Source of the DNA: a virus
Taxonomy: Duplodnaviria; Heunggongvirae; Uroviricota; Caudoviricetes
Reading direction: 5' to 3' (one strand)
IMG/VR virus record: IMGVR_UViG_2703718819_000007
Length of the DNA: 64,000 nucleotides
Part shown: one piece after another, positions 5,237 to 26,439 of the stretch
Layout: the number at the start of each line of letters is the position of its first letter
Position numbering within the stretch: position 1 is the first letter of the stretch
The notes under the pieces: model-generated
The model's database searches: none
What the model was told of the DNA's origin: nothing
Seen by the model: only the letters and a program-made list of their open reading frames with translations
Position numbers and translations under genes: made by a program

Positions 5237-5250
5237 TCAGGAGGTGAGTA

Positions 5251-5529: not shown

Positions 5530-5534
5530 GTGTC

Positions 5535-6977: not shown

Positions 6978-7001
6978 CCTGTATCCGGTAACCGTTTACT
7001 A

Positions 7002-7026
7002 CCCGCTGTGATGGCGGGTTTTTTAT
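7002..7026 (+). terminator. Rho-independent terminator after lom
   Basis: cccgc-tgtgatg-gcggg hairpin followed by T-run. Confidence 0.6.
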
Positions 7027-7806: not shown

Positions 7807-7859
7807 CTGCCACAGTTTTCATCATCGTGTTTAAACCAACATTGCAATTCACATTCTGA

Positions 7860-7882
7860 CCCTGCTCCGGCAGGGTTTTTTT
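7860..7882 (+). terminator. Rho-independent terminator
   Basis: ccctgc-tccg-gcaggg hairpin followed by 7 T. Confidence 0.65.
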
Positions 7883-7900
7883 ATTATCCAGGGGGCCATT

Positions 7901-8557: not shown

Positions 8558-9006
8558 TTATGGAGTACGGTAAATACGAAACACTTGCGAGATACGGTTA
8601 TACCGGAGCTGCCCGTCCACAGGGTGACTGGCAGACGTCAGCAGCGCTGACACGCCAACAATACGACGACTGGCGAACCAGATATTTGCCCCGCGTGGCA
8701 AGGCTGGCTGACCTTGGCGAGAACAACAGCCTGATGAATGCACAGCTTGCCCGGGTGGGCGGCCTTGCCACTTCCAGTCTCCGTACAGCGCAGATGGCGC
8801 AGGATAACCAGATGGCGAGATACGGGGTAAGCCGCCCGGATAATCCCGACAGTAATACGCTGGGGTTACGTAATGCCCTGGCAATTGCTGGCGCGAAAAA
8901 TGGTATCCGTGAAGCCGAACAGGATCGCCAGATGAACATACTGACGGGGGCTTCTGCACCGGCAAGACAGAAACTGAGTGTTGGCGGACAACTGGTGGCA
9001 GCGTAA
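8554..9006 (+). CDS. Hypothetical protein (150 aa)
   Basis: ATGA-coupled to upstream ORF. Confidence 0.5.
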   Translation: MIMEYGKYETLARYGYTGAARPQGDWQTSAALTRQQYDDWRTRYLPRVARLADLGENNSLMNAQLARVGGLATSSLRTAQMAQDNQMARYGVSRPDNPDSNTLGLRNALAIAGAKNGIREAEQDRQMNILTGASAPARQKLSVGGQLVAA

Positions 9007-9015
9007 GGAGGAAAT

Positions 9016-9267
9016 ATGGGGTACGGCTTACTGGATATTGCGAATCAGTCACGGCGTGAGGCATTACAGGGAATAAGTGACGCAGACCGACGACGTGAAG
9101 AAATTGAGGCTGCGAACAAACAGATGGCGGCGCAACAGAAAGCGCAGAACAAGCAGAATATCGGTACGGGCATTGGTACGGGGGCGGCTATTGGCGCATC
9201 CGTTGGTGGTCCTGTTGGTGCTGTTGCTGGAGCAGTAATTGGCGGCATTGCTGGTTCTTTGTTTTAA
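9016..9267 (+). CDS. Small protein with C-terminal glycine-zipper/hydrophobic segment (83 aa)
   Basis: Strong AAGGAGG RBS; C-terminal GTGIGTGAAIGASVGGPVGAVAGAVIGGIAGSLF. Confidence 0.5.
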   Translation: MGYGLLDIANQSRREALQGISDADRRREEIEAANKQMAAQQKAQNKQNIGTGIGTGAAIGASVGGPVGAVAGAVIGGIAGSLF

Positions 9268-9277
9268 GGAGTGGTGA

Positions 9278-10543
9278 ATGAGCGGATTTGCACAGGGGTT
9301 ACTTGCCGGATTCAGCACGGTTGACCAGGCAATGACCCGTCGTAAGGAGCTTGGTCTGCGTGAAGCACAGCTTGCCCGGCAACAGAAAAATAACGAGCGC
9401 GATTTTGAGTTTGCGCAGTCTCAGTTTGAACATAATAAAAACGTTGATCAGCGGAACTTTGATTACAGAGCCAAAGTTGACGACCGTAATTATGCACTGA
9501 AGGAAAGGGAGTTTAACGCTAACCAGAATTACCGGAATGCGTCGCTGGGTATGGAGCAGCAGCGACTCCGGATGCAGAAATACAACCAGCGACGGCTTGA
9601 GTATAACGATATGCTGGCGCGCGATCAGCCTGTGATGGCGGCGCTTGGAAAGGCTGTGGATGCTGGCGATCGGGATGCAGCAATGCGTCTTTACGGCCAG
9701 TTGTCAGAGGGTAATCCGCTGAGGCTGATGGCGAATGATGGCTATGTAGCGAAAGCGGGTCAGGCCGTGAACAACCTGCAAAAAATCTTTGATGACAAGC
9801 CAGACAGGGCTATCGCTTCACTTAATACGCCGGAGAATCTTGATGTCCTTTCCGGGGTGTTTGGCCCGGAACTGCAACAGCGTATTGGCATGCCCGATTC
9901 AACCGGGAAAAAGACGATAAAAGAGGCCAGGATTGGCAGTATAGTACCGGCACAGCAGGAAGGGTACATACTTATCGGCCTTGATCTCACATACAGTGAT
10001 GGCTCTACAGCACATAAACCTGTAACAGAATACGGCAGTGCGCACCCTGATGATCAAACCGTGCTGGCGATACCCGTTGATAAGGCTATCGCTCAGGTCA
10101 GGGATCGCAGCAAATTTGCAGAGATATCGAAAAATTATGGTTATTTTATGCCGAAGCAGCAGGGACTTTCTCTGAAAGAGCTTCAGAAGGGGGCCAGCAA
10201 CGTCGCGGCGGACGCGATCAAGAATGGCGGTAATGCACAGGCTGCGGTGGATGAATATTATGCTGCGACTGGTTCACAACCGCATCAACAGAAAATTCAG
10301 CAACAAAAACTTCAGCAACAGGTTATCAACTGGGCGGGAGATGATCCTGATAAGCTGTCATTTGCCAGAAATGTAGCGGCCCGTCAGCCTGAAATGCTGG
10401 AGCCTCAGAATCAGAAATTGCTGGAGAACGGGTATGCGAATTTTCTCCGTATTCAAAAGGCCAGGGGGGAACAGGCCAGAGATGAAAGTGCTTCATCTGC
10501 ATCTCAGTTTATCCGTGGACTGAAACAGAATTACGCCCAGTAA
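9278..10543 (+). CDS. Hypothetical Q/N-rich protein with predicted coiled-coil character (421 aa)
   Basis: AAGGAG RBS; Q/N/R-rich sequence. Confidence 0.5.
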   Translation: MSGFAQGLLAGFSTVDQAMTRRKELGLREAQLARQQKNNERDFEFAQSQFEHNKNVDQRNFDYRAKVDDRNYALKEREFNANQNYRNASLGMEQQRLRMQKYNQRRLEYNDMLARDQPVMAALGKAVDAGDRDAAMRLYGQLSEGNPLRLMANDGYVAKAGQAVNNLQKIFDDKPDRAIASLNTPENLDVLSGVFGPELQQRIGMPDSTGKKTIKEARIGSIVPAQQEGYILIGLDLTYSDGSTAHKPVTEYGSAHPDDQTVLAIPVDKAIAQVRDRSKFAEISKNYGYFMPKQQGLSLKELQKGASNVAADAIKNGGNAQAAVDEYYAATGSQPHQQKIQQQKLQQQVINWAGDDPDKLSFARNVAARQPEMLEPQNQKLLENGYANFLRIQKARGEQARDESASSASQFIRGLKQNYAQ

Positions 10544-10575
10544 TTCACGATATTCCATTAATACCATTTCCTGAT

Positions 10576-10601
10576 GCCCGGCCATTGTGCCGGGTTTTTT
10601 T
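10576..10601 (+). terminator. Hairpin plus T-run immediately upstream of the giant ORF start
   Basis: cccggc-cattgt-gccggg followed by 7 T; implies the true start of the giant gene is the ATG at 10613. Confidence 0.55.
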
Positions 10602-10612
10602 ATGGAGTCTGT

Positions 10613-13600
10613 ATGGCCTATTCAGAGGAACAGCGTCCTGAGGCGCAACTCGGTAACCAGAATCGTAACAGCCTGAACATTCAGCAACCCGGCGAAACTG
10701 ACAGCTATGAAGCATTTTTCTCTGATCCGAATCGCTGGAAGGATAACAGTACGTCGTTCAGCCTGGGCGATGTATTGCCAACAATGGGTAAAGGTTTCGC
10801 CCAGTCCGTCCGGGGAACAGGGGAAATGGCCCGTGGACTCGGTGATGCGATGATTCAGAGCCCGGTAAAAACAGGGGCGCGTATTTTAAATGAGTTCAGC
10901 CGTATGGGGCTGCCGGGTGTCGCAACTGTGCAGGATATTTTTGCCGGTGGCAGCAGGGGGGCTGATGAGGTCATCGATACCCTGCCTGATGGCAAAAACG
11001 CGGTTACTGATACTGTCGGTAAAGGTCTGAAGGCAACCGGTAAGGCTGTCAGTGATGGTGCTGAAGCCACTGATGAATGGCTGACCGGTAAGATGTCGCC
11101 GGGTGCAGTTCGTGCGCTGAATACGCCGATGACCGAAGGCTATGATGATTCTGCGGTCTGGGTGGCGAAGGGTGTAAACCTGATTGGTGCGCTTGTACCT
11201 GATATGGTTGCTGGCGGTGTGGCTAAAAAGGTGGGTGATGTCACACTGCGAAAAATGCTGACCGCCGGGCTGGAGAAAAAATACATCGCGGCAGGGATGC
11301 AGCCGGAAAGAGCCACGGCACTGGCAGCAGAAGCTGTCGATAAAAAAATGCCGGATTTATTCCAGGCGGGCCTGATCACCCATTCCACAGCCAGTGCACA
11401 GGGGCAGAGTGCAATGGCGGCAGCAGATGCTGTTCTTAATGCGGATTACTCTGAGCTGGCGCAGTCACCGAAATTTCAGCAGACGTTTTTGTCCATTGAC
11501 GCCGACCCGCAGCACGCACAGCTTACTGATCGCCAGAAAATGGATCTGGCAAAAGAGCGTGTTGCCGATGAGGTGCGCGCGCAGCTGGCAACCGATCCTG
11601 AATTGCTGGCTGTGAATGCCATGGCGGCAAAACTGGGTGACGCACAACTGTTTAATCTGGTGACACGAGGCACAGCGAAGACCGTTAAAAGCGGCATTGT
11701 CAGAAATGCCACGGAACAGGGGGCGATTAATGCGGCGCAGGGCGGCTATTCACGCTATCAGGAAAACACGGCATTGCGTGAGACCGCCGGAATGGATGTG
11801 TCACCGTGGGAGGGCGTGGCTGACGCAACGATCGAAGGTGCAGCCTTTGGTGCTGCGATGGGGGCTCCATCCGGTGCGGTTGCCGGATATCGTGGCAGAC
11901 GTCAGGCCGCAGAAGAAGCAGCCATGCGTGATGCTGAAACCGTGCAGCAGGACGACGCAGCCCCGCAACCAGAATCTGTTGATCCGGTGGCGCAGCATCG
12001 TGAATCCATGCAGGGGATGAATCGCGAGCAGCTTCTGGAGCAGTATGCTGATGCGGATATGGCAACAGAGGGGGACGCATCCGCAGCTCATCGCCGGGAA
12101 GCTGCCAGCCAGTTGTTGAATGAACTGGACGAACAGGCGAAGCGACAGGCTGTGATGAATGAGCTGAAGGCGAAGCCGCGTTCTGAACTGCTTGAGGAAT
12201 ACCGCAGACTCAGCCAGAAAGAGGAGCGCACCGAGACTGAAGAACAACAGTTTCAGGCAATACGAGAAGTCATTCGCCCACAACAGGAAGTGACGCCGGA
12301 AGCACAGTCACAGCCTGAAAATGCGGAGGATGGTAACGGGAGCATTTACCCGACGGTGCGGTTCCGGGACCCGAATGAAGTCCGCATTGAAATTAACGGG
12401 AATGGTGCGTCCAGACCAGCGGAACGCATTGAAAAGGTGCGCCCGGACAACCGTTATTTCACGGATGAGAAAAGCGCCATGGGGAGTGATGTTTTCCGTA
12501 ATGCCGCCGCCACCGGCCTGAAACCGTCCGTAGTGAAGAAAGGCGAGACTCAATATGCTGTTGAAATGGATAATCCTGCGTTCTCTGAAGATGTGGCAAC
12601 GGAAACCATTAACACCCTGGCTGACGGAGAGCGTATTGCTGATGCTGACCCGATGGAGCAGCCCGCGTTCATGCGTGACCCACGATTCCGTGGTTTCACG
12701 GGGGATGATACGGAGGTACAGGCCCGCCTTGCCCGTGGCAACGTGCCGACGGCAGAGGAGCTTGTACGTTCACAGATGGCTGAAGGTGATGCCGGTCCGA
12801 CAGCACAGGAGTTAACTGAGCGTCCACGCCTGCCCGCTCCCGGCGATATTCATCCCGGACAGGGATATCCGTTACCGGGAGAGGTGGCGCGTACGCCGGA
12901 TGAGAATCAGGCAGGACGTGGTGGTCGTTTTACCACAACCGGTGAGGTTAAGGGCCAGAGTTTCCAGAAAGGACAAGCTCTGGCACCGGAAAACGCCGCT
13001 GGTCGCCAGGGGGAAACACTCGAGGGTGAAATGGTTCGTCGTGGTCTGCCGTCACCGGATGCGCAGAACGCGACAGCACCGGTACGTGAAGGGCTACCGG
13101 CTCCGGACATTACACACAATGTCCGTATGCCTCAGCCTGATCAGCTTCCCCGAACTGTTCGTAACTCATTGCCTGAGCTCGCACAGCAGGCAGAAGTACG
13201 TCGACAGGCCGGAGGAAATCGTGACATCCCGCAGCCTGAGACAATCGCACCTGAATCTGAAACAACAGTCGCTACTGACAGGGAAGCTACCGTGCGCGGA
13301 GGTGAAGTCAGGGGCAAAAAAATTGAAGACTTTGGTGAAGAAATTAAGGGCGCGGCAAAACACCGTTATGCACAGCTTGCTGAAACACTGGGTAAAACGC
13401 TGGAAGACAGGGATTATGTCACGCAACCGCTGAGCAAACTGTTCCCGAAACCGGACTACGCAAAACTGGCGAGCGAAGGGGCTGATGCTGACACCCTGGC
13501 AATGATAGCGCTGTATCGTAGCGATATTCCGGTGAAGACGAAACACAATACGGCAGGCTGGGGGGAGAGCGTAAAAAAAGTACGACACAGTGTATCGGAA

Positions 13601-16600
13601 ATGCTGAACGGAACGGTCAGCGCGAAACGCCTCGCAGAATGGATGGAAGGCAGAATGCCCTCCCGTTACGCGGACACCTGGCAACTGTTACGCACTCTGC
13701 CACCCTCACAGATGGACAAGGCTTCTGCTTATCGGGTGGTATCGGGTGTGTATCAGGCGGCAGGAGGGAAGCGTTACGATCCGCCACAGAAACTTTATTC
13801 ACTGCGCAATAAGGACAATAAGGGGAGTAACCTCTTTTTCTCGGAAAGCAGGGATGAATTACTGGCAAAGGCGAAAGTCTGGTTTGCAGAGCAGGAGGAA
13901 AAATCACAGGCGAAAGGTGATGAAAAAACAGCACCGTCTCCGGATGACAAAATCCGCTTTGACGTTTACCGGAATACCCGCAGTGGCGATATTTTTATCG
14001 CTTACGGTAAAAACAAAATGCGGGTGAGAGGTGGCTTTAAGTCAGCCAGTGATGCGCGTAAGTACATTGATTTACATCGTGATGAGCTTGTTCGTCATGT
14101 GAAGGAGATGCGGGAGATTTCGCGTGAGGAGCAGCGCAACGCCACCAACCGCGACCGTACCGGACCAGAACGCCGCAAGGGGGATGTTTCACCGGAGCAG
14201 TTCAGTGATGCGTTTGGTTTTCGTGGTGTGCAGTTTGGTAATTATGTGGAAAGTCCGCGTCGTCAGGCTGATTTGAACCGGGCTTATGACTCGCTGCATG
14301 ACCTGGCTGACGTGCTGAATGTACCGACAAAAGCGCTTTCTCTGAACGGTCGTCTTGGGCTTGCTTTTGGTGCCCGTGGTAAGGGTAAGGCGGCGGCACA
14401 CTATGAGTCAGGTGAGGTGGCAATCAACCTGACAAAAGGTAACGGACCGGGTGCGCTGGCGCACGAATGGTTCCATTCTCTGGATAATTATTTTGGTCGT
14501 TATGACGTTTCCAGTGACGGGAAAATTACGTCAGGTGGCGACTTTATGACGGAAGCACAGCGTGTCAGGCGCATATTTAAAGACGGCAGGTATGTTGATG
14601 CTGAATATCCGGTACGTCAGGAGGTTTACGACGCTTTTAAAGGTGTGATTCAGGCCATTAAAAACAGTGACATGCCGCGTCGTTCAGCGCTTCTTGATGA
14701 GGTGCGCTCAAAACCGTACTGGTCAACGGATGTTGAAATGGCGGCACGTGCCTTTGAGCGTTATGTTCAGGATAAGGCGCGTATGGCTGGCGTGGAGAAT
14801 GATTATCTGGTCAATATCCGTAAGGCACCTGAGCACAACACAGATAACACCTACGCTTATCCGACGAATGCGGAACTGGATGGCGGTATTCGTGAGGCAT
14901 TCGATCACCTGTTCCGCACCCTGAAAACCCGTGAGACGGACAAGGGCGTTGCGTTTTATTCCCGTAAGGGCATGACCCGCACACCTGAAGGTAATCTCAT
15001 TTCGGATGTTAACCGTAGTGCGGAAGCCAAAGGCAGCCCGGTCCCGCAGGTTGAAGCGGTTGCCCGTGGCGTGATGAGCGGCATTAAGGACAGTGACCTG
15101 ACGGTCCGTGTGGTGAAGTCACAGAAAGAGGCTGAAGCGCTGGCGGGTGAATCGTTCGACGGTTACGGCAGGGTGCACGCATTCTATCGTCCGGATAAAC
15201 GAGAAATTGTCCTGGTGGCGGATAACATCCCTGACGGGCAGACCGTACGCGAGAAGTTGCGTCACGAGATTATCCACCATGCCATGGAGCATGTTGTCAC
15301 GCCAGCGGAATATCAGACGATTATCAAAACCGTGCTGAAAACCCGCGACAGTGATAACGCCACCATCCGTGAAGCCTGGCGTAAGGTTGATGCGTCCTAT
15401 GGTAAGGAATCACCGGAAGTACAGGCGGGTGAATTTCTGGCACATATGGCGGAGAAACAGCCGAATAAATTCGTGGCGGCATGGGAGCGTGTTGTTGCCC
15501 TGGTCAAAGGGGTACTGCGTCGTACGGGGTTACTGAAGCCGACGGAACTGAACGATATCAGACTTGTTCGCGAGACCATCCGTACGTTAGGCCAGCGTGT
15601 GCGGGAAGGTTACACGCCGCGTGAGGATGGCGTGGGCGCATCGTCTCAGTACTCCCGTAGTGGTAAGCCTGATCCGTTCAAAGTGCCGGAAGGTGAGGGT
15701 GAACGTTATCGCGATGACCTTGCCAGAATGATGAAATCTCTGCGTACCACAGATTTAACGGTAAACATCGGGCGTACGCCGCCGGTATTGCGTCACCTTG
15801 GTGCACCGGATTTGCCGCTGGTTATTTCCCGCGATACTGTGCGGAAGGCCACCAATGGTGTGAAACATGTGGTGCCGATGGATGTTATCGAGAGACTACC
15901 GGAACTGATGCACGATCCGGATGCAATTTACCGCTCAGCGACAGAAAGAAATGCGGTTGTGATGCTGCTTGATGCCGTGGATAAAAATGGTGATCCGGTA
16001 GTGTCTGCGGTGCATATGAAGGCAACCCAAAAACTTCTGGAAGTTAACCGTATTGCTTCTGTTTACGGAACGGAAAACGGGAAAAAACTGAAGAGTATGG
16101 AAACGGCTGGCTTAACATTATACAGGAGAGAAAAACTAAACCCTGATGGTTCTCTGTACAGAGGGCTCCAATTGCCCAAAGATGAGCACTCCCGTCAGGG
16201 TTCTGCGGATAAAATACTCTATCCTGAAGATATTCGCAAGGGGCCGTATTACTCCCGTACCAGCAGTCTGACACCGGAAGAGACAATTGCATCGCGTTTT
16301 GTGCGCCAGATGCAGGATAAATTCCAGGTGCTGAAAGCTGTTCAGGAGAATATCCGTAAAACTGGTGGAAAAATAGACGACAGTAACAACGCTTATATGG
16401 CGGAAGAACTCTTCCACGGGAAGGCGGAAAACGACCTGAACGTGATGAAGGAGCGCTACGTTCAGCCACTGGCTAAATTACTGGCGGACTACAAAATTGC
16501 GCAGGCCGATCTGGATGAGTACCTCTACGCCCGTCACGCGCCGGAACGTAACGCGCATATCGCGAAAATCAACCCGAAAATGCCGGACGGCGGTTCGGGG

Positions 16601-18994
16601 ATGACCAACGCGGAGGCGGCGGAAATCATGCAGCGTGTACGTAACAGCGGCAAACAGGCACAGTATGACCGTCTGGCAGGGATTGTTGACGATATGCTGG
16701 CCCGTCGCCGTGAGCTTATCCGTGAGGCAGGACTGGAAGAGAGCGGCGTGGTGGATGCCTGGCAGAAAGCCTACCGTTACTACGTTCCCCTGAAAGGGCA
16801 GGATGTTGACGGTGTGGTGTCACTGCCACGTACAGGCAAGGGATTCACCATCGGCGGGCGTGAAAGTAAGCAGGCCATGGGGCGCGCATCCCGCGCACAG
16901 TCTCCTTCCACTCAGGCGATACAGGATTTGAGCGAATCACTGATCCGCAATCGCAAAAATGAAGTGGGTAACGCCTTCCTGAAACTGGTACAGGATAATC
17001 CCGACAAGGATTACTGGCAGGTATTCACCGATGACAGACCGGATACCATGCGGACGATTGCAGAGCGCAAGGACAAGGAAACTGGTGAAACCATTCGCGA
17101 AGTTGTCGAACGCCCTGTACCGATGGCAATGATGGCAGACCGGTACTTCACCACCAAAAAGAACGGCAAAACGTACTACATCAAACTCCATGATCCGCGC
17201 CTGATGCGTGCGATGAAGAATATGGGACCGGAAACCAGTAACGCCGTAATCCGCACGCTGGGGAAAGTTAACCGCTTCCTGGCAACGGTGAACACGTCGT
17301 ATAACCCGGAATTCCTGGTCAGTAACTTCATCCGTGACGTACAGACGGCGGTGATGAACCTGAAGGCGGAGCAGGGAAGGAGCGACGGCAAACTGAAAGG
17401 GCTGGATAACTTATCCGCACTGGCTGTGGTGAAAGACAGTCGGTCTGCCATGTCTGCCGTATACGCCAGTCTGCGTGGTAAAACCCTCACGGGCAACGGT
17501 GCGCAGTGGCAGAAGGTGTGGAAAGAGTTTGTTGAGGACGGAGGTAAAACCGGCTGGTTTAACATGGGTGACCTTGAAGGCCAGCAGAAGGAAATGGATC
17601 GCCTTGTATCGCTGGCGAAGGGAGGATGGAAAGGCCAGAGTATCGGTGCATGGAATTCGTTCCTTAACCTTGTCGAGGATGCCAACGGGGCGGTTGAAAA
17701 CGCTCTGCGTCTTTCTGCCTATAAACACGCCCGTGATGCCGGTTTGTCACGCCAGCAGGCGGCGTCTCTTGCCAAAAACATGACGGTGAACTTTAACCGT
17801 CGTGGTGAGCAGGGGGCGCTGATGAACTCGCTGTACATGTTCGCCAACGCCAGTATTCAGGGAACGGCAAATCTGGTGAGAACGCTCGGACATCTTAATG
17901 GTGAGGGACCTTTACTGGAGCGCCTTCGCTGGAAGAATCTGAATGTTCCGCAGAAAATCGCGCTTGCCGCTGTGGGAGCGGGTTATCTGCTTGGCTCGCT
18001 TAACCGCAGCGTGGCGGGTGAGGATGATGACGGGGTTAACTGGTATGACAAAGTACCGTCTCATGTGAAAGAGCGTAACCTCGTCATTATGAAATCGGTG
18101 TTCGGGGGCAAGGCCGGAGAGTACTGGAGTATTCCTCTGCCTTACGGGTACAACGTTTTCTTCCTGCTTGGTCACACAGCCGAAGGGGTGGCAGCGGGCG
18201 ACCTGACCGCTTCACGTGCTGCCGGTAATGTTGTTGGTGGTGTGCTTGGGGCATTCAGTCCTGTGGGCAGTGAAACGTCGGAAACACTGTCCGGGGCATT
18301 GCTGAAAAATGCAGCGCCGACCATTCTGCGTCCGTTTGCGAACCTTGCCATGAATGAAAACTTCATGGGGGCGCAGATTTACCAGGAGAACATGCCGTTT
18401 GGTACACCAAAACCTGACAGCCAGCTGGGAAGACGTTCAACGCCAGAAGCGTACAAGGCGTTTGCATCCTGGCTGAATGCGTTCTCAGGTGGCAGCCAGT
18501 ACCGTCCCGGCGCGGTGGATATCACACCGGAATCGCTGAAATTCTGGATTGACTATATCTCCGGAGGGACAGGGCGCTTCATTTCCAAAACCACGGATGC
18601 GGCGGTGAAATCGCTGAATGGTATTGATATACCGGAACAGCAGGTGCCCTTCCTGGGGAAAATTTCGGGGGAGGTGATGCCGTATGCAGACCAGCAGAAG
18701 ATGTACGACCGGATGACAGAGATTGCGCAGTATCACGCAGAGCTGAAGAGTCTGACCGGTGCAGAAAGAACGGCGTTCATTGACGAGAACAACGGAAAAT
18801 TGTCGATGAACGGGCTTATGCAGGATACCCGGAAGAGACTGAAGGATTTGCGTAAACAGCGTGATGCCATTTATGCCGACAGTTCTCTCAGTCTGGCGCA
18901 GCAGGCGGCGATAGTGAAATCGGTAGAGCGGGATATGAAGGTTGCCGTGGATCGCTTTAACCGCGAGTACAACAAAAAAGTGGGAGTGGATTAA
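10613..18994 (+). CDS. Giant 2793-aa phage protein with two HExxH (zincin-like) motifs; candidate multi-domain polyvalent virion/ejection protein
   Basis: Single uninterrupted ORF; GGAG RBS 5 nt upstream of ATG 10613; HEWFH and HEIIHH motifs. Confidence 0.8.
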   Translation: MAYSEEQRPEAQLGNQNRNSLNIQQPGETDSYEAFFSDPNRWKDNSTSFSLGDVLPTMGKGFAQSVRGTGEMARGLGDAMIQSPVKTGARILNEFSRMGLPGVATVQDIFAGGSRGADEVIDTLPDGKNAVTDTVGKGLKATGKAVSDGAEATDEWLTGKMSPGAVRALNTPMTEGYDDSAVWVAKGVNLIGALVPDMVAGGVAKKVGDVTLRKMLTAGLEKKYIAAGMQPERATALAAEAVDKKMPDLFQAGLITHSTASAQGQSAMAAADAVLNADYSELAQSPKFQQTFLSIDADPQHAQLTDRQKMDLAKERVADEVRAQLATDPELLAVNAMAAKLGDAQLFNLVTRGTAKTVKSGIVRNATEQGAINAAQGGYSRYQENTALRETAGMDVSPWEGVADATIEGAAFGAAMGAPSGAVAGYRGRRQAAEEAAMRDAETVQQDDAAPQPESVDPVAQHRESMQGMNREQLLEQYADADMATEGDASAAHRREAASQLLNELDEQAKRQAVMNELKAKPRSELLEEYRRLSQKEERTETEEQQFQAIREVIRPQQEVTPEAQSQPENAEDGNGSIYPTVRFRDPNEVRIEINGNGASRPAERIEKVRPDNRYFTDEKSAMGSDVFRNAAATGLKPSVVKKGETQYAVEMDNPAFSEDVATETINTLADGERIADADPMEQPAFMRDPRFRGFTGDDTEVQARLARGNVPTAEELVRSQMAEGDAGPTAQELTERPRLPAPGDIHPGQGYPLPGEVARTPDENQAGRGGRFTTTGEVKGQSFQKGQALAPENAAGRQGETLEGEMVRRGLPSPDAQNATAPVREGLPAPDITHNVRMPQPDQLPRTVRNSLPELAQQAEVRRQAGGNRDIPQPETIAPESETTVATDREATVRGGEVRGKKIEDFGEEIKGAAKHRYAQLAETLGKTLEDRDYVTQPLSKLFPKPDYAKLASEGADADTLAMIALYRSDIPVKTKHNTAGWGESVKKVRHSVSEMLNGTVSAKRLAEWMEGRMPSRYADTWQLLRTLPPSQMDKASAYRVVSGVYQAAGGKRYDPPQKLYSLRNKDNKGSNLFFSESRDELLAKAKVWFAEQEEKSQAKGDEKTAPSPDDKIRFDVYRNTRSGDIFIAYGKNKMRVRGGFKSASDARKYIDLHRDELVRHVKEMREISREEQRNATNRDRTGPERRKGDVSPEQFSDAFGFRGVQFGNYVESPRRQADLNRAYDSLHDLADVLNVPTKALSLNGRLGLAFGARGKGKAAAHYESGEVAINLTKGNGPGALAHEWFHSLDNYFGRYDVSSDGKITSGGDFMTEAQRVRRIFKDGRYVDAEYPVRQEVYDAFKGVIQAIKNSDMPRRSALLDEVRSKPYWSTDVEMAARAFERYVQDKARMAGVENDYLVNIRKAPEHNTDNTYAYPTNAELDGGIREAFDHLFRTLKTRETDKGVAFYSRKGMTRTPEGNLISDVNRSAEAKGSPVPQVEAVARGVMSGIKDSDLTVRVVKSQKEAEALAGESFDGYGRVHAFYRPDKREIVLVADNIPDGQTVREKLRHEIIHHAMEHVVTPAEYQTIIKTVLKTRDSDNATIREAWRKVDASYGKESPEVQAGEFLAHMAEKQPNKFVAAWERVVALVKGVLRRTGLLKPTELNDIRLVRETIRTLGQRVREGYTPREDGVGASSQYSRSGKPDPFKVPEGEGERYRDDLARMMKSLRTTDLTVNIGRTPPVLRHLGAPDLPLVISRDTVRKATNGVKHVVPMDVIERLPELMHDPDAIYRSATERNAVVMLLDAVDKNGDPVVSAVHMKATQKLLEVNRIASVYGTENGKKLKSMETAGLTLYRREKLNPDGSLYRGLQLPKDEHSRQGSADKILYPEDIRKGPYYSRTSSLTPEETIASRFVRQMQDKFQVLKAVQENIRKTGGKIDDSNNAYMAEELFHGKAENDLNVMKERYVQPLAKLLADYKIAQADLDEYLYARHAPERNAHIAKINPKMPDGGSGMTNAEAAEIMQRVRNSGKQAQYDRLAGIVDDMLARRRELIREAGLEESGVVDAWQKAYRYYVPLKGQDVDGVVSLPRTGKGFTIGGRESKQAMGRASRAQSPSTQAIQDLSESLIRNRKNEVGNAFLKLVQDNPDKDYWQVFTDDRPDTMRTIAERKDKETGETIREVVERPVPMAMMADRYFTTKKNGKTYYIKLHDPRLMRAMKNMGPETSNAVIRTLGKVNRFLATVNTSYNPEFLVSNFIRDVQTAVMNLKAEQGRSDGKLKGLDNLSALAVVKDSRSAMSAVYASLRGKTLTGNGAQWQKVWKEFVEDGGKTGWFNMGDLEGQQKEMDRLVSLAKGGWKGQSIGAWNSFLNLVEDANGAVENALRLSAYKHARDAGLSRQQAASLAKNMTVNFNRRGEQGALMNSLYMFANASIQGTANLVRTLGHLNGEGPLLERLRWKNLNVPQKIALAAVGAGYLLGSLNRSVAGEDDDGVNWYDKVPSHVKERNLVIMKSVFGGKAGEYWSIPLPYGYNVFFLLGHTAEGVAAGDLTASRAAGNVVGGVLGAFSPVGSETSETLSGALLKNAAPTILRPFANLAMNENFMGAQIYQENMPFGTPKPDSQLGRRSTPEAYKAFASWLNAFSGGSQYRPGAVDITPESLKFWIDYISGGTGRFISKTTDAAVKSLNGIDIPEQQVPFLGKISGEVMPYADQQKMYDRMTEIAQYHAELKSLTGAERTAFIDENNGKLSMNGLMQDTRKRLKDLRKQRDAIYADSSLSLAQQAAIVKSVERDMKVAVDRFNREYNKKVGVD

Positions 18995-19002
18995 CAGAAA
19001 TG

Positions 19003-19024
19003 GCCCCGTACGGAAGTGCGGGGC
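19003..19024. terminator. Hairpin at the convergent junction between late operon and leftward accessory genes
   Basis: gccccg-N10-cggggc inverted repeat between the two converging gene blocks; no strong T-run. Confidence 0.4.
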
Positions 19025-19117
19025 TGATTAAGGAATAAACACACATTAACCTGTAATAACCGGAGCTATTAACATATAGTCAGAAAGAGTATTTCATGTG
19101 AGACAGAGAGCCGATTT

Positions 19118-19309
19118 ATGTTTAATGAAGAAAAAGTTGCGCAAATGGCAGCGTATTTGCTGAAAAAGCATGGCGGATCTATGCGTTTCATTAAGCTGAT
19201 GAAGCTGATGTATCTCTCTGACCGCAAAGCAATGGAGTCTTTAACCGGGAAGGGGAGAGGTTTGAATGCTCCCCCACAATTCCCCGGCATCAAATCTCCA
19301 TGCAGGTGA
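19118..19309 (+). pseudogene. Truncated fragment resembling the N-terminus of a Panacea/DUF4065-type phage-associated protein
   Basis: MFNEEKVAQMAAYLLKKHGGSMRFIKLMKLMYLSDRKAMES then premature stop at ~63 aa. Confidence 0.3.
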
Positions 19310-19395
19310 ACTATTTTACCCCCAGCGGCAAATCGCAAAAACAATCAGTGCGATCGAAATGGCAGCCACTACAATTGCAAATGCTTCAGGCTAGG

Positions 19396-20322
19396 TCATT
19401 GGCTTACCTCCTTCGGCGGTTCTGGTAGCGGCATCCAGTGGGTTACTTCTTTGAGATGCAGGTCTTCGCCATCACCGTCATCCCAAGTGGGATTGCCATC
19501 ATTAAACCAGTCGCCATATACGCCGACCTGAGTGTTGGGGATGCTTGGTGGGTAGTTGTTTTTAAAGTCAGCTGCTAACACATAGTATTGTCGCTCTCCC
19601 ATTTCTGGCATTCGATCACTACAGCTTATCCAACCATCCGGAGTTACCGGAACTGGCGGAACGGCTGTTTGCTCTCGAACGTCATTAGTCGCTATCGGTT
19701 CTGCTGCCAACTGACTGGCATATTTGTTAATGGTAACGATAAGCTCTTGCTCAGCCTCATCCAGACAATCACCGATACCTCGCCTGTCACCGTCAAAATC
19801 ATCGAAATCGGCACGAATCTTGGCAACCTTCTGGATTGCGGACAACACCTCACTAGGAATTACCGGATAGTTGGTTGACGTTTCCGCGATTTCCCGAAAA
19901 TTATTGGTTGACGAATTCTTGTTTTCCCGAAAGTTTCCGGACTGAAGCATGGCGGCGCGGCAGGCATTCCAGCCTCTTACCTCTGCAATAGCGGCAACCG
20001 CATCAACCGCGTACATGCTAAGAGGATTAGGCATTGGTTTTTCTTCCGGTACTACTGGTGCTGGAGGGGCGGCGTAAATGCCCTCTATCACTAAATGTTT
20101 GCGCTCAAAATCATCTGGCTCTCGATGATATACGTAACTCCAATCACCAAGGTTATCATTGCGCCTGCAACGGAAACCTATCGGCTCGGCTTCCAGCGCT
20201 GCCAGAGCAATTCGTGCCAGTTCTTCCGCTTCTTCTGCTGGCAGTACAACGTTGCTACCAGGTCCGTATGTTTCGCGCCACTGCTTGATTGTCAGTAGTC
20301 GCTCTTTGGTAATAGTGATCAT
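19396..20322 (-). CDS. DUF551-like lambdoid prophage protein (308 aa)
   Basis: C-terminal W/D-rich motif (DGWISCSDRMPE...VTHWMPLPEPP) typical of DUF551 proteins. Confidence 0.55.
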   Translation of the reverse strand: MITITKERLLTIKQWRETYGPGSNVVLPAEEAEELARIALAALEAEPIGFRCRRNDNLGDWSYVYHREPDDFERKHLVIEGIYAAPPAPVVPEEKPMPNPLSMYAVDAVAAIAEVRGWNACRAAMLQSGNFRENKNSSTNNFREIAETSTNYPVIPSEVLSAIQKVAKIRADFDDFDGDRRGIGDCLDEAEQELIVTINKYASQLAAEPIATNDVREQTAVPPVPVTPDGWISCSDRMPEMGERQYYVLAADFKNNYPPSIPNTQVGVYGDWFNDGNPTWDDGDGEDLHLKEVTHWMPLPEPPKEVSQ

Positions 20323-20834
20323 GCCGCGTTTCCTTCTTTCTTATTAACAATTACACCGTCATATATTTCATTAAGGTGCCCTCTCAACTCCATGCGCCTT
20401 AATGCAGATAACATGTAATCGCATTCAACCTGCTTATTCCCAATAAAAGGTTTATCTTCAGGGTTACCCCAACAGCAATTCCCCTTGGGCCATCCATGTA
20501 CTTTCCGTACTCTTCCGTTAACAACGTGAAGTAATCCCCAGCCAGGTGGTAAATCCTCAATTGAAATAATTCCCGGCTCACTAATAAAGAATCGCCAGTC
20601 GCCCATTCCAAGAGACGGATTTTTACGAAAACGCTTTTTTCTATCTGCCAACAAGTCAGCACGAGAACATTTCGCCTCTATCAGGCATGATGCTGAATTT
20701 CTGAATCCCATAGCATCTGGCTGTTCTCCGGTACTGGTTACAGCTATAAAGCGGTCATGAAAACAAACCTTGAACCCGTTGCGCTTAAGGAACTTGTACG
20801 CAATCTGACAGAGTTCGCGGTGTGTTAACGCCAT
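20319..20834 (-). CDS. Hypothetical prophage protein
   Basis: ORF coupled to neighbours in leftward operon. Confidence 0.45.
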   Translation of the reverse strand: MALTHRELCQIAYKFLKRNGFKVCFHDRFIAVTSTGEQPDAMGFRNSASCLIEAKCSRADLLADRKKRFRKNPSLGMGDWRFFISEPGIISIEDLPPGWGLLHVVNGRVRKVHGWPKGNCCWGNPEDKPFIGNKQVECDYMLSALRRMELRGHLNEIYDGVIVNKKEGNAA

Positions 20835-20835
20835 A

Positions 20836-21786
20836 TCACTCTCCTTTGATGCGAATGCCAGCAAGCCAGTTTCTTATGCCGATATATTCAGCGTTCCGGA
20901 AACCGCTTTTTACATATATAAATGGCAAGCGAAGATTGTGACCATTGACTGCCAGGTAGTCTTTACAACCCTGTTCGGTGAAACAGCAGGTAACGAATTC
21001 ATCAATATCTTTCACAGCAACGCGCCGCCATTTTTCTGGTGGCTCTCGAAAGTTTTCATGAAGTAGCTCGAGACGACGACTATGGCGTTTATTGGCTTCA
21101 TTGCCATCTTCGTCAACCCAGACAATCCGGTCATGGTCATAATCAGCATCAACAACGATTTCGCGCTTTTGATACACACAAAACATGGGATCTGACGTTA
21201 TTCGATTGTCCTGTGTTCGAATATTTTCACCGATGATGCCAAACGAATCTGGTGCAGATTTTGTCTGCATCTCTTCGATACGTTCAGCCATCGCAGCACA
21301 CTCTTCAAAGTTGCTTAATGCTTTTCGCTCCCATTCGGCGCATTGTTTTTCCAGTTCTGCTATGCGCTTACTTCCATCCGCGATTACTCCCTCGTAATAT
21401 TCACGCTGCTCGTTGAGTTTTGATTTTGCTGTTTCAAGCTCAACGCGCAGCTTCCCTACCGTAAGCGCAATATCCTCGTTCTCCTGGTCGCGGCGTTTGA
21501 TGTATTGCTGGTTTCTTTCCCGTTCATCCAGCAGTGCCAGCACGGTAGCCGGATTGGCTGCGGCGATGAATTCAGCATTGGCCTGCTGTTCCATTTGGAA
21601 ATCTTCATCGAAACCGCTTTCAGGATGTGCTCCTTCAATTCTGCAAATGGGAATATATCCAGCAGCCTCGCGATGAATTAGTGCATCATCACCATCAAAT
21701 CGGTTCTCTCCATATTCGAGCGACCACTCACCACGCGTTGCTTTTTCTGCCTTTTCACGCAGTACCTGATAGTTAATCTCGCTCAT
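20836..21786 (-). CDS. Ea22-like lambdoid prophage protein
   Basis: MSEINYQVLREKAEKATRGEWSLEY N-terminus characteristic of Ea22-family proteins. Confidence 0.6.
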   Translation of the reverse strand: MSEINYQVLREKAEKATRGEWSLEYGENRFDGDDALIHREAAGYIPICRIEGAHPESGFDEDFQMEQQANAEFIAAANPATVLALLDERERNQQYIKRRDQENEDIALTVGKLRVELETAKSKLNEQREYYEGVIADGSKRIAELEKQCAEWERKALSNFEECAAMAERIEEMQTKSAPDSFGIIGENIRTQDNRITSDPMFCVYQKREIVVDADYDHDRIVWVDEDGNEANKRHSRRLELLHENFREPPEKWRRVAVKDIDEFVTCCFTEQGCKDYLAVNGHNLRLPFIYVKSGFRNAEYIGIRNWLAGIRIKGE

Positions 21787-22057
21787 TTTTCTCTTCGCTC
21801 CGGTATACAAGAATTACAACGTCACCTCTGCTAATTACGCGAGCTGGATCTCCTGGCTCCATGCTGTCAATCCCGAAGGCTTCGGAAAACGCATTCATTG
21901 CCTTCTGGCGTTGATCCTGCTTACGGCATTTATTCCATTTTTTCAGTAACAACAGCGATAGCCACCGCCCGGCGCAGAACATAATGTAAAAATAACCAAG
22001 AAGCGCCAGACCTGTGTTGAGGGCCGTATCGATCGTTATAGTGGTGTCTATGCTCAC
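21773..22057 (-). CDS. Small hydrophobic hypothetical protein
   Basis: ORF coupled in operon. Confidence 0.4.
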   Translation of the reverse strand: MSIDTTITIDTALNTGLALLGYFYIMFCAGRWLSLLLLKKWNKCRKQDQRQKAMNAFSEAFGIDSMEPGDPARVISRGDVVILVYRSEEKNERD

Positions 22058-22275
22058 TTCACACCTCTCTGTTTGTTGATAAGTTCAATATCCTGCTGGC
22101 AACTGGCGCAAGTTCGGCATCCGCGAACAGCCTGGCGTCGCCGCTCATCTATCGGATCGCCACACTCGCAACAATGAGTAGCAGATGGGGCATTACTTTC
22201 GGATTTGTATTTTTGCAGGGAGAGATTGCGCTGCAATTCTTCGATTTCAGCGGCATTGTCGATGATATCTGCCAT
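22054..22275 (-). CDS. TraR/DksA-family C4 zinc-finger protein
   Basis: CCECGDPIDERRRQAVRGCRTCASC motif. Confidence 0.65.
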   Translation of the reverse strand: MADIIDNAAEIEELQRNLSLQKYKSESNAPSATHCCECGDPIDERRRQAVRGCRTCASCQQDIELINKQRGVK

Positions 22276-22322
22276 TTTCCTTTCCTTCAGGCATGAAAAA
22301 AGGAGCCGAAGCTCCTTTGGTA

Positions 22323-22946
22323 TCAGAATTCAAATTGTCTTGCTCTTAGTTGCGCTAGCATACTTCTGGCCCTATGCACCATATAGTTGGCGGGATCAAG
22401 TTTTGCTGCTTCGCGGAGCAATGTGTCGCGAGTCCGGTTGGTTATATGACGAGTCTCGTAGGCCAGATCAAACAGTTTCCCGTAGTAATCAGAATTCAGT
22501 TCTCTCATGACGGGGTATAGCTGCTTACTGAGTTGTTGTGCTTTTTCCATCCAGAGTTGAACGTAGCAGAGCAGGATGATGTCTTCTGCTGTGAATTGCT
22601 GCTCAGTTTGTACTGGCTGAATGTTGCGAAGTTTCTTTTCGCACTCGATGAAGTATCGGCGTATCTGGCGGCCTTTTTCGTTACGTTCAACCATCGCAAG
22701 CTCTTTGGCTGTGTCGAGGGTGAGGTGGTAATCCTTGCGGCGGCGGCCTGGAGTTTTCGCCAAATTTGGCGAAAATAGAATGTAGTCTAAATTTTCTACG
22801 AATCCATACTCGTTTAGCTTGGCCCGTATCCAGTTAGAAAAATCTTTACCTACCTCTAAAAATCCATGCAAATCACGCGCGTTCACCAGAAGCGTAGGTT
22901 CATTTGAGATTGTACCTTCAAACACAGGGATGAGTTGAGTGGTCAT
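22323..22946 (-). CDS. Phage antirepressor (AntA-like N-terminal domain plus C-terminal domain)
   Basis: MTTQLIPVF...ARDLHGFLEV...NLDYILFS...RKDYHLTLDTAKELAMVE; AGGAGG RBS. Confidence 0.7.
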   Translation of the reverse strand: MTTQLIPVFEGTISNEPTLLVNARDLHGFLEVGKDFSNWIRAKLNEYGFVENLDYILFSPNLAKTPGRRRKDYHLTLDTAKELAMVERNEKGRQIRRYFIECEKKLRNIQPVQTEQQFTAEDIILLCYVQLWMEKAQQLSKQLYPVMRELNSDYYGKLFDLAYETRHITNRTRDTLLREAAKLDPANYMVHRARSMLAQLRARQFEF

Positions 22947-23195
22947 GATGACCTCCTTTGGCTTTTTTCGAGAAATGCCACCACAAAATGTGGTGCCGGG
23001 AGGCTCGAAACGGCCCAAAAGATACCGCGGACTTATTCCCCTTGCGGGTGTTGTATTCGTCGCCCTCCCGACATTGATCGGGGATGTGACCGCACACTGT
23101 GCTATCACTGAATAACAGGCATAAAAAATCCAACACTGACGGGGTTGGTTTAATCCGCTTTTGGGAGGTTTTCGAGGCCTCGGCGCGGAGTATAG

Positions 23196-23483
23196 TCAGT
23201 ATTGGACGCAGTCGTCAACCATCGCCGTTTCTTTGGCTGTGTCGAGGGTGAGGTGGTAATCCTTGCGGTTGTGACCGCCTCTACCAGATGTTTGCTTTCC
23301 CAAATTGGAAAGCAAAATATAGTCTTGATTTTCAATGAATTCGTATTCTGAAATGCGATTTGTAATCCATGCCGCAAACACCTTTTTCACGCCTAAAAAA
23401 GCATGCAGATCGCGGGCATTGCAGAGTAGGGCTGTTTCGTTGTCGATAGTGCCGTTGAATACGGGGATGAGTTGATTAGCCAT
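23196..23483 (-). CDS. Truncated paralog of the antirepressor N-terminal domain
   Basis: MANQLIPVFNG...ARDLHAFLGV...QDYILLS...RKDYHLTLDTAKETAMVDD; ~60-bp nucleotide near-identity with 22690-22750. Confidence 0.55.
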   Translation of the reverse strand: MANQLIPVFNGTIDNETALLCNARDLHAFLGVKKVFAAWITNRISEYEFIENQDYILLSNLGKQTSGRGGHNRKDYHLTLDTAKETAMVDDCVQY

Positions 23484-23810
23484 AATTATGACTCCTGACG
23501 TTTTAGTATTGACTGCCACCTTAGTGGGGTGGCGGGCTTCAACTACCGCGTCAGACGGCGGAGCGTATTTCCCGAAAGGGTATTGTATTAGGCTCTCTCG
23601 ACCCGCCATTGATATGGCGATACCTGTAAACAGGCATAAAAAAGCCGCAAAGCTATCGGGTGCGGTTGACCGCTGACGTTGTAGTGCAGTCAGTATGCGA
23701 TAGCTCTGGCAGATTTGTCAAATCGTGCAGTAACATCCTTTTCTTCCTTGCCATTTCTCAATGATGACAAAGGGTGGATTCGGATTGGTATTGGGACAAA
23801 AGTGAGACAC

Positions 23811-23844
23811 ACAAAGCTTTGCATCGGCTTACAAAGCTTTGCAT
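23811..23844. repeat. Two direct copies of acaaagctttgcat 20 bp apart next to the prophage/ynfG junction; candidate integrase arm-type sites
   Basis: Exact 14-bp repeat at 23811-23824 and 23831-23844; related ctttgca occurs at the junction. Confidence 0.5.
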
Positions 23845-23924
23845 GTTTTTCAATGTTGGGACGTGTGAGCGCAGAAATGACGGGCTATCTAATTGATTTT
23901 AAACGATACGTAACCAACTTTAAA

Positions 23925-24002
23925 ATCTTTGCACGCCAGTTCGCAGGTTTTACAGCCAGTACAGCGGCTGGAATCGATAAAAAATCCATATTGTGTGGTC
24001 AT
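23925..24002 (-). pseudogene. ynfG: ynfG 5' fragment (Fe-S subunit of DMSO-reductase-family enzyme), truncated by prophage insertion
   Basis: MTTQYGFFIDSSRCTGCKTCELACKD then divergence into phage sequence. Confidence 0.7.
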
Positions 24003-24012
24003 GGGCTACTCC

Positions 24013-26439
24013 TTAAACCTTTTCGATCTGGACAAGATTGCTGTGCGACGGGTTTCCCTTTGCCAGCGGTGAAGGGCGGTGAGAGGTCAGAATATTGATA
24101 CTGCCGCCGTGATCGACCCGGTCACCAAACATATCCGCTTTAAGCCACGCACCTTGCCCGATGGCGGTAACGCCAGGCAGAATACGCGGAGTCACTTTTG
24201 CGGCAATCAGCATTTCTCCATTATTGTTAAATACCCGCACGGTATCGCCATGACGGATACCGCGTGCCTGAGCATCAATGGGGTTGATCCACACCTCTTG
24301 TGGGCAGGCCTGCTGTAACACATCAATATTGCCGTAGCTGGAGTGGGTACGCGCTTTGTAGTGGAAGCCCGTTAACTGCAGTGGATAGGTTTTCCGCAGG
24401 GGATCGTCCCAGCCATCAAAACCTGGGGTATACGCAGGAAGGGGATGAATAATTTCATCTTTTTTCAATTCCCAGGTATCTGCAATCTTCGCCAGTCGTT
24501 CAGAATAAATTTCGATTTTCCCCGAAGGTGTTTTCAACGGGTTTGCCTGTGGATCTTCACGGAATGCGCGGAAAGCGACGTAGTGTTCTTCCGGGCATTT
24601 TTTCTTAAAGATCCCGGTCGTTTTCATCTCCTCGTAGTCGGGCATCTCAGGGTTACGTTCCTTCGTTTTCGCATGGAGATATTTGATCCATTCATGCTGA
24701 CTGCGACCTTCAGTAAAGGTTTGATAAACGTCTGGTCCTAAGCGTTTGGCGACTTCACTCAGCATCCAGTAGATGGGTTTGCGTTCAAATTTTGCTGAGG
24801 TTGCGGGTTGGGCGAGGATCACATAGCCCATATTCCCTGCAGATTCATGAGAGATAAGGTCTTCTTGCTCTGTTGGCATCAGGTCGGGCAACAGGATATC
24901 GCAATACTTAGCCGAGGCCGTCATGAAGTGGTCAATGCCAACAATCATCTCGCACTTGCTGTCATCCTGAAGCACCTCATGGGTGTGATTGATGTCGCCA
25001 TGTTGATTGATCAATGTGTTACTGGCGTAGCACCATAAAAACTTGATGGGGACATCCAGTTTTTCTTTTCCACGAACACCATCACGGGTCGCGGTCATTT
25101 CCGTACCATGGTCGATGGCATCTGTCCATGTAAAGACGGAAATCTGCGTTTTAACAGGATTCTCAAGCATCGGGAACCATTCTACCCCCAGATCCCAGCT
25201 ACCTTCGCGTACACCTGAGTTGCCGCCGTTTATGCCGACGTTACCGGTGAGAACGGAAAGCATGGCAATAGCGCGGGACGTTTGCTCGCCGTTGGAATGT
25301 CGTTGTGGCCCCCAACCCTGACAAATATAAGCAGGTTTTGCTGAACCGATCTCTCGTGCCAACTGGATAATTTTTTCTGCCGGGATGCTGGTGATTTTTG
25401 CTGCCCATTCCGGCGTTTTAGCTATGCCGTCAGGCCCTTCGCCCAGAATATAGGCTTTATAATGCGCGTTACGTGGTGCGTTGGCGGGCAGCGTTTTTTC
25501 ATCGTAACCAACACAATATTTGTCGAGAAATGGCTGATCGACCATGTTTTCAGTAATCAGTACCCAGGCAATCGCACAGGCCAGTGCGCCATCGGTGCCA
25601 GGGCGAATGGGCAGCCATTCATCTTCACGCCCGGCAGCAGTGTCGTTATAACGTGGATCGATGACGATCATGCGTGCGTTTGAACGTTCGCGGGCTTGCT
25701 CGACGTAGTAAGTGACACCACCGCCGCTCATCCGCGTTTCTGCCGGGTTATTTCCGAACATAACGACCAGTTTCGTATTGGCGATATCATCCGGGCTGTT
25801 GCCATCATTGGCACCGAACATATAACTCATTGCGGCACTGATCTGTGCGGTACTGTAGCTGCCATAGCGACTGAGAAAACCACCGCAAGAGTTCATCAGA
25901 CGGTACGGGACGTTTGAGTTGGTGATGTTTCCGCCATCTACGCCTGTTCCGTACAGGACATGTACAGCCTCATTGCCGTAATCTTTCAGGATCCGCCGAA
26001 GATTATCACTGATGGTATCCAGGGCTTCGTCCCAACTTATCCGTTCAAATTTACCTTCACCGCGCTTGCCGACGCGCTTCATGGGATATTTCAACCTATC
26101 AGGATGATTCATCCGTCGGCGGATAGAGCGCCCGCGTAAACACGCTCGAACCTGATGGTTACCGTAGACGTCGTCACCTGTCGTATCAGACTCCACCCAG
26201 TACACGGTGTCATCTTTCACATGCAAACGTAACAGACAGCGGCTCCCGCAGTTAACGGTGCAGGAACTCCAGACCGCTTTCTCTTCTACCGGAGCCTCTG
26301 CCGCCCGGACCATTTGGGAAAATGGCAGAGTGAAAGCACTGCTTGCCAGCGCAAGACTGCCAAGTGCGGAGGTTTTCATCAGACTTCTACGGCTGATTTC
26401 AGCCTTCATGAGCGCCTCTGTGGTATGGATTTTCATCAT
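24013..26439 (-). CDS. ynfF: DMSO-reductase-family molybdopterin oxidoreductase catalytic subunit YnfF (Tat signal)
   Basis: RRSLMKTSALGSLALA twin-arginine signal, CxxCxxxC Fe-S motif, 808 aa. Confidence 0.85.
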   Translation of the reverse strand: MMKIHTTEALMKAEISRRSLMKTSALGSLALASSAFTLPFSQMVRAAEAPVEEKAVWSSCTVNCGSRCLLRLHVKDDTVYWVESDTTGDDVYGNHQVRACLRGRSIRRRMNHPDRLKYPMKRVGKRGEGKFERISWDEALDTISDNLRRILKDYGNEAVHVLYGTGVDGGNITNSNVPYRLMNSCGGFLSRYGSYSTAQISAAMSYMFGANDGNSPDDIANTKLVVMFGNNPAETRMSGGGVTYYVEQARERSNARMIVIDPRYNDTAAGREDEWLPIRPGTDGALACAIAWVLITENMVDQPFLDKYCVGYDEKTLPANAPRNAHYKAYILGEGPDGIAKTPEWAAKITSIPAEKIIQLAREIGSAKPAYICQGWGPQRHSNGEQTSRAIAMLSVLTGNVGINGGNSGVREGSWDLGVEWFPMLENPVKTQISVFTWTDAIDHGTEMTATRDGVRGKEKLDVPIKFLWCYASNTLINQHGDINHTHEVLQDDSKCEMIVGIDHFMTASAKYCDILLPDLMPTEQEDLISHESAGNMGYVILAQPATSAKFERKPIYWMLSEVAKRLGPDVYQTFTEGRSQHEWIKYLHAKTKERNPEMPDYEEMKTTGIFKKKCPEEHYVAFRAFREDPQANPLKTPSGKIEIYSERLAKIADTWELKKDEIIHPLPAYTPGFDGWDDPLRKTYPLQLTGFHYKARTHSSYGNIDVLQQACPQEVWINPIDAQARGIRHGDTVRVFNNNGEMLIAAKVTPRILPGVTAIGQGAWLKADMFGDRVDHGGSINILTSHRPSPLAKGNPSHSNLVQIEKV

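Follow-up and report, generated by a model that had tools for sequence, protein, structure and literature searches.

A stretch of 64,000 nucleotides from a tailed phage record (IMGVR_UViG_2703718819_000007), referred to below as the window, contains a copy of ynfG that runs into phage DNA shortly after its start codon. This raises the question of what event joined the two, and which of the sequence elements crowded around the junction took part in it. A sequence-only reading of the window had proposed site-specific integration into the ynfG coding sequence, with a pair of 14-bp repeats just inside the phage DNA as arm-like sites. We consider it highly probable, taking all parts of the reading together, that positions 23600-24012 represent the attR of a lambdoid prophage of the phiPOC-J13 type inserted in ynfG, with a P22-like P arm and a likely excisionase (Xis) array. 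Both the integration site and the phage have been published already; the anatomy described here adds detail to a known phenomenon and does not define a new type of system.

Results

ynfG is split at a 7-bp core

A tblastn search with K-12 YnfG matched residues 1-28 at 100% identity on the minus strand (24002..23919), and the rest of the protein found no match anywhere in the 64-kb window. The ATG at 24002 starts ynfG directly downstream of an intact ynfF (24013..26439, minus strand; an 808-aa ORF, annotated ynfF in identical genomes). The ynfG fragment, codons 1-28 plus one base (23918..24002, minus strand), is identical to K-12 and bears the first cysteine cluster, CxxCxxCxxxC. After ...KDFK, the reading frame continues through nine codons of foreign sequence, giving a truncated ORF, MTTQYGFFIDSSRCTGCKTCELACKDFK followed by VGYVSFKIN and a stop, and the fragment is labelled by PGAP as a truncated 4Fe-4S binding protein in identical genomes. 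The sequence-only reading had correctly recognised an intact gene start followed by phage DNA, but its extent of about 25 codons (26 residues quoted) was too short, as homology reaches codon 28. It includes F27 and K28 because both codons fall in a 7-bp core common to phage and host.

The core, CTTTAAA (23918-23924, read on the plus strand; ynfG codons 27-29), emerged from a three-way alignment of K-12 ynfG with both prophage junctions, where the left prophage end is that of near-identical genomes and the window itself contains the right junction only. Window positions 311-25672 are 99.99% identical to E. coli JNEC-KY179. CTTTAAA is the only stretch common to K-12 attB, the window junction and the int-side junction of JNEC-KY179; the partner sequence switches on each side of it, and phage-specific sequence stops at 23917. 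This three-way pattern is the signature of tyrosine-recombinase strand exchange within a 7-bp overlap. At the int-side end of JNEC-KY179, a 387-aa tyrosine integrase (PF00589 at 1.5e-45; outside the window) lies 52 bp from the core and is followed by the 3' 540 nt of ynfG, ynfH and dmsD. The corresponding junction of the window's own genome would read int ... GCAACAACTTTAAAGATCTTGGCC, then ynfG codons 29-205, ynfH and dmsD; in the 99.99%-identical genomes, the remaining 177 ynfG codons lie ~64 kb off, beyond the window. The 3' remainder that the sequence-only reading had suggested looking for at the other prophage end is thus found there, beside the integrase. In the mechanism that we propose, a P22-type tyrosine integrase would exchange strands inside CTTTAAA and cut ynfG into two parts, codons 1-28 remaining beside ynfF and codons 29-205 coming to lie beside phage int.

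The reconstructed attP is GTAACCAACTTTAAAGTTGTTGCTC; across the core it reads …CCAACTTTAAAGTTGTT…, and its centre, CAACTTTAAAGTTG, is a perfect 14-bp palindrome. The host-side flank of the core, ATCTTTGCACGCC (23925..23937), is identical in K-12 ynfG, agrees with the phage flank GTTGTTGCTCACC at 8 of 13 positions, and is a candidate core-type integrase site of the B' type. The ctttgca that had been noticed at the junction and related to the 14-bp repeats is indeed present (23927-23933), at a distance of 2-9 bp from the crossover, the place expected for a core-type integrase half-site. The proposed kinship does not stand, however: the heptamer consists of host ynfG codons Ala23-Cys24-Lys25, identical in prophage-free K-12, and its likeness to a repeat unit is most simply a coincidence. 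A perfect 9-bp inverted repeat, GATTTTAAA / TTTAAAATC, also occurs at 23895-23903 and 23919-23927. Its P-arm copy is an inverted version of the core-spanning ynfG sequence, 15 bp from the real core, and could be a pseudo-core, a host-factor site, or a chance match in AT-rich DNA.

Seen in the window alone, where a single junction is visible, the same arrangement could be the scar of a rearrangement or deletion. We give this explanation next to no probability, because genomes 99.99% identical to the window have a reciprocal junction, with the same 7-bp core and the integrase next to it, and because lysogenisation experiments demonstrating integration into ynfG have been published (PMC4193171). 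The same junction, moreover, recurs in 79 genomes. With the core at both junctions, the reciprocal junction and the published experiments, the proposal of site-specific phage integration inside the ynfG coding sequence holds.

Relationship to phiPOC-J13 and distribution of the junction

Positions 1..23917 (plus strand) comprise the right-hand part, with late/tail and accessory genes, of a lambdoid short-tailed prophage, the integrase end of which falls outside the window. The phage side of the junction matches the right end of Shigella phage POCJ13 (phiPOC-J13; KJ603229) at 357 of 358 bases, the POCJ13 record ending at window position 23917. At the left end of the relatives' prophage, the int-side 240 bp are 100% identical (240/240) to POCJ13 and to phage 75/02 Stx (KF766125). 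These two are Stx1a-converting phages located in ynfG/S1742, the same target gene as here; the window differs from them in holding the right 24 kb only, without stx, int or xis. Gray et al. reported that phiPOC-J13 inserts into S1742 of S. flexneri and, in MG1655 laboratory lysogens, into the homologue ynfG, where integration was shown experimentally to be site-specific (PMC4193171). The same insertion site is used by phage 75/02 and by a crow STEC Stx1a prophage (PMC5447701, PMC10562709).

In JNEC-KY179, the DNA to the left of the junction is a 64-kb lambdoid prophage with stx1a, and the nearest complete genomes likewise have stx1a inside the ynfG prophage. Judging from these 99.99%-identical genomes, the window's own prophage copy would carry stx1a too, in a region upstream of the window start. 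The tail-fibre region at positions 1-310 does not align to the otherwise identical JNEC-KY179 prophage, a mismatch that may reflect a difference in tail-fibre cassette. Of 5426 complete E. coli genomes searched by megablast with positions 23400-24300 as query, 79 contain the entire junction, six of them at 99.9-100% identity. The junction is 97.6% identical in O104:H4 genomes, and the att module therefore occurs in other prophages too.

Other integrated elements in the window

ynfE is also split, by a 6.7-kb integrative island (27528-34223) with flanking repeats at 27513-27527 and 34224-34238 that form an imperfect 15-bp direct repeat (AGTTCCAGATGGACT / AGTTCCAGATGAACT), so that only ynfF is intact among ynfEFG in the window. 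The island encodes a 540-aa tyrosine recombinase (27589-29211) and five ORFs without a Pfam match. Strains JNEC-KY179 and S19-651, otherwise 99.98% identical, lack it, and 47 complete E. coli genomes, crow STEC RM10410 among them, carry at least 80% of it. Past rspB, at ~40995-64000, lies a second lambdoid (Qin-like) prophage that appears ordinary, with genes for an integrase and an excisionase, dicB/DicF, hokD/sok, the thermoregulators cspB/cspI, and terminase and portal.

A P22-type attachment module

The phage arm of attR (23787..23917, plus strand) is homologous to the P arm of P22-family attP. In blastn comparisons with phage genomes, the reconstructed attP was 69-75% identical to those of P22, L, ST64T, epsilon34, 2G7b and others, in alignments spanning ~130 bp to the left of the core, and the core position, and reaching into the adjoining int 3' end. 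Compared with their P22 counterparts, Int of the ynfG phage is 71% and Xis 72% identical; Xis has an HTH_17 match (7.3e-9), and its ORF and the start of int overlap. The JNEC-KY179 prophage encodes Xis, outside the window, as an intact 122-aa ORF (L002 12583-12951, minus strand); RefSeq has this region only as a 66-nt pseudogene fragment, 'helix-turn-helix domain-containing protein'.

P22, L, ST64T, epsilon34 and E. coli 2G7b share one scaffold with the ynfG phage: two TGRGAC motifs, a four-unit 10-bp array and a third TGRGAC, continued by the core and then by two TGRGAC overlapping the int 3' end. The difference lies in the core. P22-family cores duplicate the 3' part of a tRNA gene (thrW, argU, tRNA-Pro), and the tRNA targets are reconstituted upon integration, whereas the ynfG phage shares 7 bp with a protein-coding gene, which ends up disrupted. 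No tRNA similarity was found for its core segment, which is unlike the thrW, argU and tRNA-Pro types.

TGRGAC motifs as likely integrase arm-type sites

The P arm holds three TGRGAC motifs on the plus strand, TGGGACA (site 1, 23792..23798), TGAGACA (site 2, 23803..23809) and TGGGACG (site 3, 23857..23863). The window contains 21 TGRGAC in all, and these three are clustered in 72 bp on one strand, where the window counts lead one to expect about 0.012 per such interval. Using a conserved 15-mer as anchor, we gathered 48 unique P arms from IMG/VR and compared them, together with eight true attPs from phage genomes, in a gap-free alignment; an IMG/VR search with the integrase returned mostly contigs that end 3 bp after int and hence have no P arm. 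TGRGAC was invariant in 48/48 unique family P arms at sites 1 and 2, that is, at positions (23792 and 23803) outside the search pattern, whereas site 3 belonged to the search pattern and its invariance among P arms is by construction. The distance from site 3 to the first P' arm site is 154-155 bp in all true attPs, seven of which were compared for spacing.

On the P' arm, two TGGGACA motifs, 11 bp apart and within 18 bp, overlap the 3' end of int. The offsets of the five motifs from site 3 (-65, -54, 0, +154, +165) are identical in the ynfG-phage attP, P22, BZS1 and ENT47670; the P' offsets of MII_001 are +155/+166, and epsilon34 and 2G7b show the same layout but with one or two of the five TGRGAC sites off the strict pattern. 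Because the motif tracks the integrase on both arms, as arm-type sites should, comparative anatomy makes TGRGAC the likely integrase arm-type site.

Two IMG/VR loci, L158 and L187, join a P22-type P arm via a tRNA core to the P' arm of another integrase type. Their integrases show 52-60% identity, and TGTGYC instead of TGGGACA stands in the same place of the P' arm. These hybrid junctions look like tandem prophages sharing one tRNA site, and could mislead comparisons of att sites.

A helically phased array between sites 2 and 3

The 14-bp repeats, ACAAAGCTTTGCAT, occur as two exact copies at 23811-23824 and 23831-23844, as had been reported from the sequence. They lie inside the phage arm of the attachment site, and a search of the window that tolerated two mismatches found no further copy. 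By simple arithmetic, chance would give any particular 14-mer a second exact copy ~5e-4 times per 128,000 strand positions. The pair is also conserved in P22-family phages, and is not a product of chance since it has been kept there. The two copies are units 1 and 3 of an array of four tandem 10-bp phased units, AAGCTTTGCA TCGGCTTACA AAGCTTTGCA TGTTTTTCAA (23814-23853, plus strand). The array sits between sites 2 and 3 of the P arm, at 65-104 bp from the core. The 47 bp between these sites fall into 10 sequence types in the family, and all 10 are made of four 10-bp units. Self-identity at lags 10 and 20 is 0.56 versus 0.275 expected (0/1000 shuffles) and is seen in all 10 sequence types, lags apart from these two not being conspicuous; conserved columns, a T and then CA, recur every 10 bp.

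Excisionases bind tandem repeats head-to-tail, one helical turn apart, and bend the DNA (PMC7498355). By its sequence and by analogy, the array is probably a binding and bending array for Xis, which would occupy it cooperatively, one protomer per helical turn, bending attR for excision. Lambda attR offers a parallel: its X1-X1.5-X2 sites are direct repeats in helical phase and likewise occupy the P arm between the core and an arm-type Int site; in lambda, the excisionase filament bends DNA at the X sites, which stay in attR, a general principle according to PMC7498355. The ynfG-phage array has no sequence similarity to X1-X1.5-X2 and consists of four units against three, and its binding by Xis is a prediction. 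Of the attPs examined, that of Serratia phage BZS1 contains the most divergent array, and BZS1 is the only phage among them to carry four unique substitutions in the helix-turn-helix segment of Xis; this single case of co-variation is suggestive and would fit Xis binding. ENT47670 counts against co-variation, as its Xis is similarly diverged (64%) and yet its array is of the TTTGCA type. Most IMG/VR loci in the co-variation search were prophage ends without xis, and L158 and L187 were discarded as hybrid junctions.

Other functions can be envisaged for the repeats. The sequence-only reading took the 14-mers for integrase arm-type sites and the ctttgca of the junction for a related one. The 14-mers do form direct repeats 74-107 bp from the core on the P arm, one CTTTGCAT occurs in the P' arm of the ynfG phage (L002 11573-11580), and CTTTGCA is rare, with 6 copies in the window, 3 of them near the junction. 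However, the motif does not occur in the P' arms of P22, L, epsilon34 and 2G7b, the sequence differs across the 10 types though the integrase family is constant, and the junction copy belongs to host ynfG. TGRGAC fits an arm-type role better, occurring on both arms, invariant (at site 3 by construction) and at fixed spacing, and we regard an arm-type role of the 14-mers as quite improbable. Less probable again, indeed very unlikely, is that the repeats are sites of the phage activator CII/C1 (TTGC-N6-TTGC). P22, L and epsilon34 do have TTGC-N6-TTGC-N6-TTGC at the repeats, annotated in epsilon34 as 'putative CII-binding site (x2)', and the prophage family encodes a CII protein. In the ynfG phage, however, TTAC stands in place of TTGC in the middle repeat, divergent members (BZS1 and others) show TTGC in a single unit, and inspection of the sequence found no -10 element at the required distance. 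We rejected CII sites because TTGC is conserved neither across the units nor across the family.

The chief role of the repeats might instead be to form the stem of a hairpin in RNA, either an intrinsic terminator or an element similar to lambda tI/sib. Such a hairpin would lie downstream of int across attP in the free phage, and in the prophage would halt read-through from ynfEF before the antirepressor operon. A terminator-like hairpin with a 17-bp stem, a 6-nt loop and the tail CTCACTTTTG does fold on the minus strand, the sense strand of int and ynfF, at 23807..23846 (-23.1 kcal/mol, z = -3.8), and it was the only terminator-like site in the region covered by a consensus scan. The homologue in phage L has z = -3.7, and phage L and epsilon34 annotate the homologous segment as 'terminator'. 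Across the family, 60% of cells pair in register versus 22-44% when slid, with a few compensatory pairs. Farther inward on the same strand come a candidate sigma-70-like promoter (TTGACA-18-CATACT, 23692..23721, 10/12 matches in a consensus scan) and then the antirepressor (ant) genes that it faces. Against a primary role, in 4 of the 10 family types neither strand forms a significant hairpin (z -1.7 to +1.3) although the 10-bp array is kept, CTCAC intervenes between stem and U-run, and a repeated near-palindromic unit automatically gives dyad symmetry; the hairpin forms here because the array units are near-palindromic in the ynfG phage. We therefore treat the hairpin, kept in only about half of the family types, as a secondary, lineage-specific feature, given its absence from 4 of 10 types and the mere ~60% pairing in register. 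A conserved RNA hairpin as the primary, family-wide function was rejected, strong as the structure is in this phage. That the repeats act mainly in this way, which may coexist with Xis binding, seems to us unlikely, if with some real chance of being right; a binding array for Xis remains the preferred reading.

An Rfam scan of the junction gave only a sub-threshold chance match to mir-19, which fell on the hairpin. Nearby, two full-length matches to the Rfam family sRNA-Xcc1 (RF02221) lie on the minus strand at 22987-23072 and 23523-23607 (74.5 and 53 bits; gathering score 53), each immediately 5' of an ORF for an AntA-family antirepressor (22323-23108 and 23196-23609). The sRNA-Xcc1 family was described from Xanthomonas integron cassettes.

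Discussion

The split after Lys28 parts the first CxxCxxCxxxC cluster from the remainder of YnfG. At the other junction, the phage arm offers a possible GTG start (MVSNNFK-DLGPE...) without a replacement cysteine cluster, and because the phage restores no N-terminal cluster, the insertion is expected to inactivate ynfG. It would thereby knock out the Fe-S subunit of the YnfEFGH selenate/DMSO-type reductase, and it parts ynfH-dmsD from the operon promoter.

A more far-reaching reading would see in the ynfG attP a P22-type integrase scaffold that has switched from tRNA genes to a protein-coding target via only 7 bp of identity, and would take the array as doing double duty, as Xis site and, where lambda has tI/sib, as a terminator or retroregulator distal to int, with a further role in the lysogen as a barrier between ynfEF and the antirepressor operon. 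Taken jointly, these two proposals are improbable. Were the array to act in this way, nothing else would stand between the anaerobically induced ynfEF transcript and a co-oriented antirepressor operon ~250 bp inward, and leaky read-through could make RecA-independent induction of a Shiga-toxin prophage responsive to signals of anaerobic respiration.

ynfG is a recognised insertion site in Stx-prophage typing, and identifying the insertion therefore helps to place a strain among the Stx1a-carrying lineages of E. coli and Shigella. The 7-bp core, the P22-type arms, the TGRGAC sites and the phased array may aid PCR typing, and the anatomy of the attachment site at base level may aid the study of how P22-type integrases change their targets.
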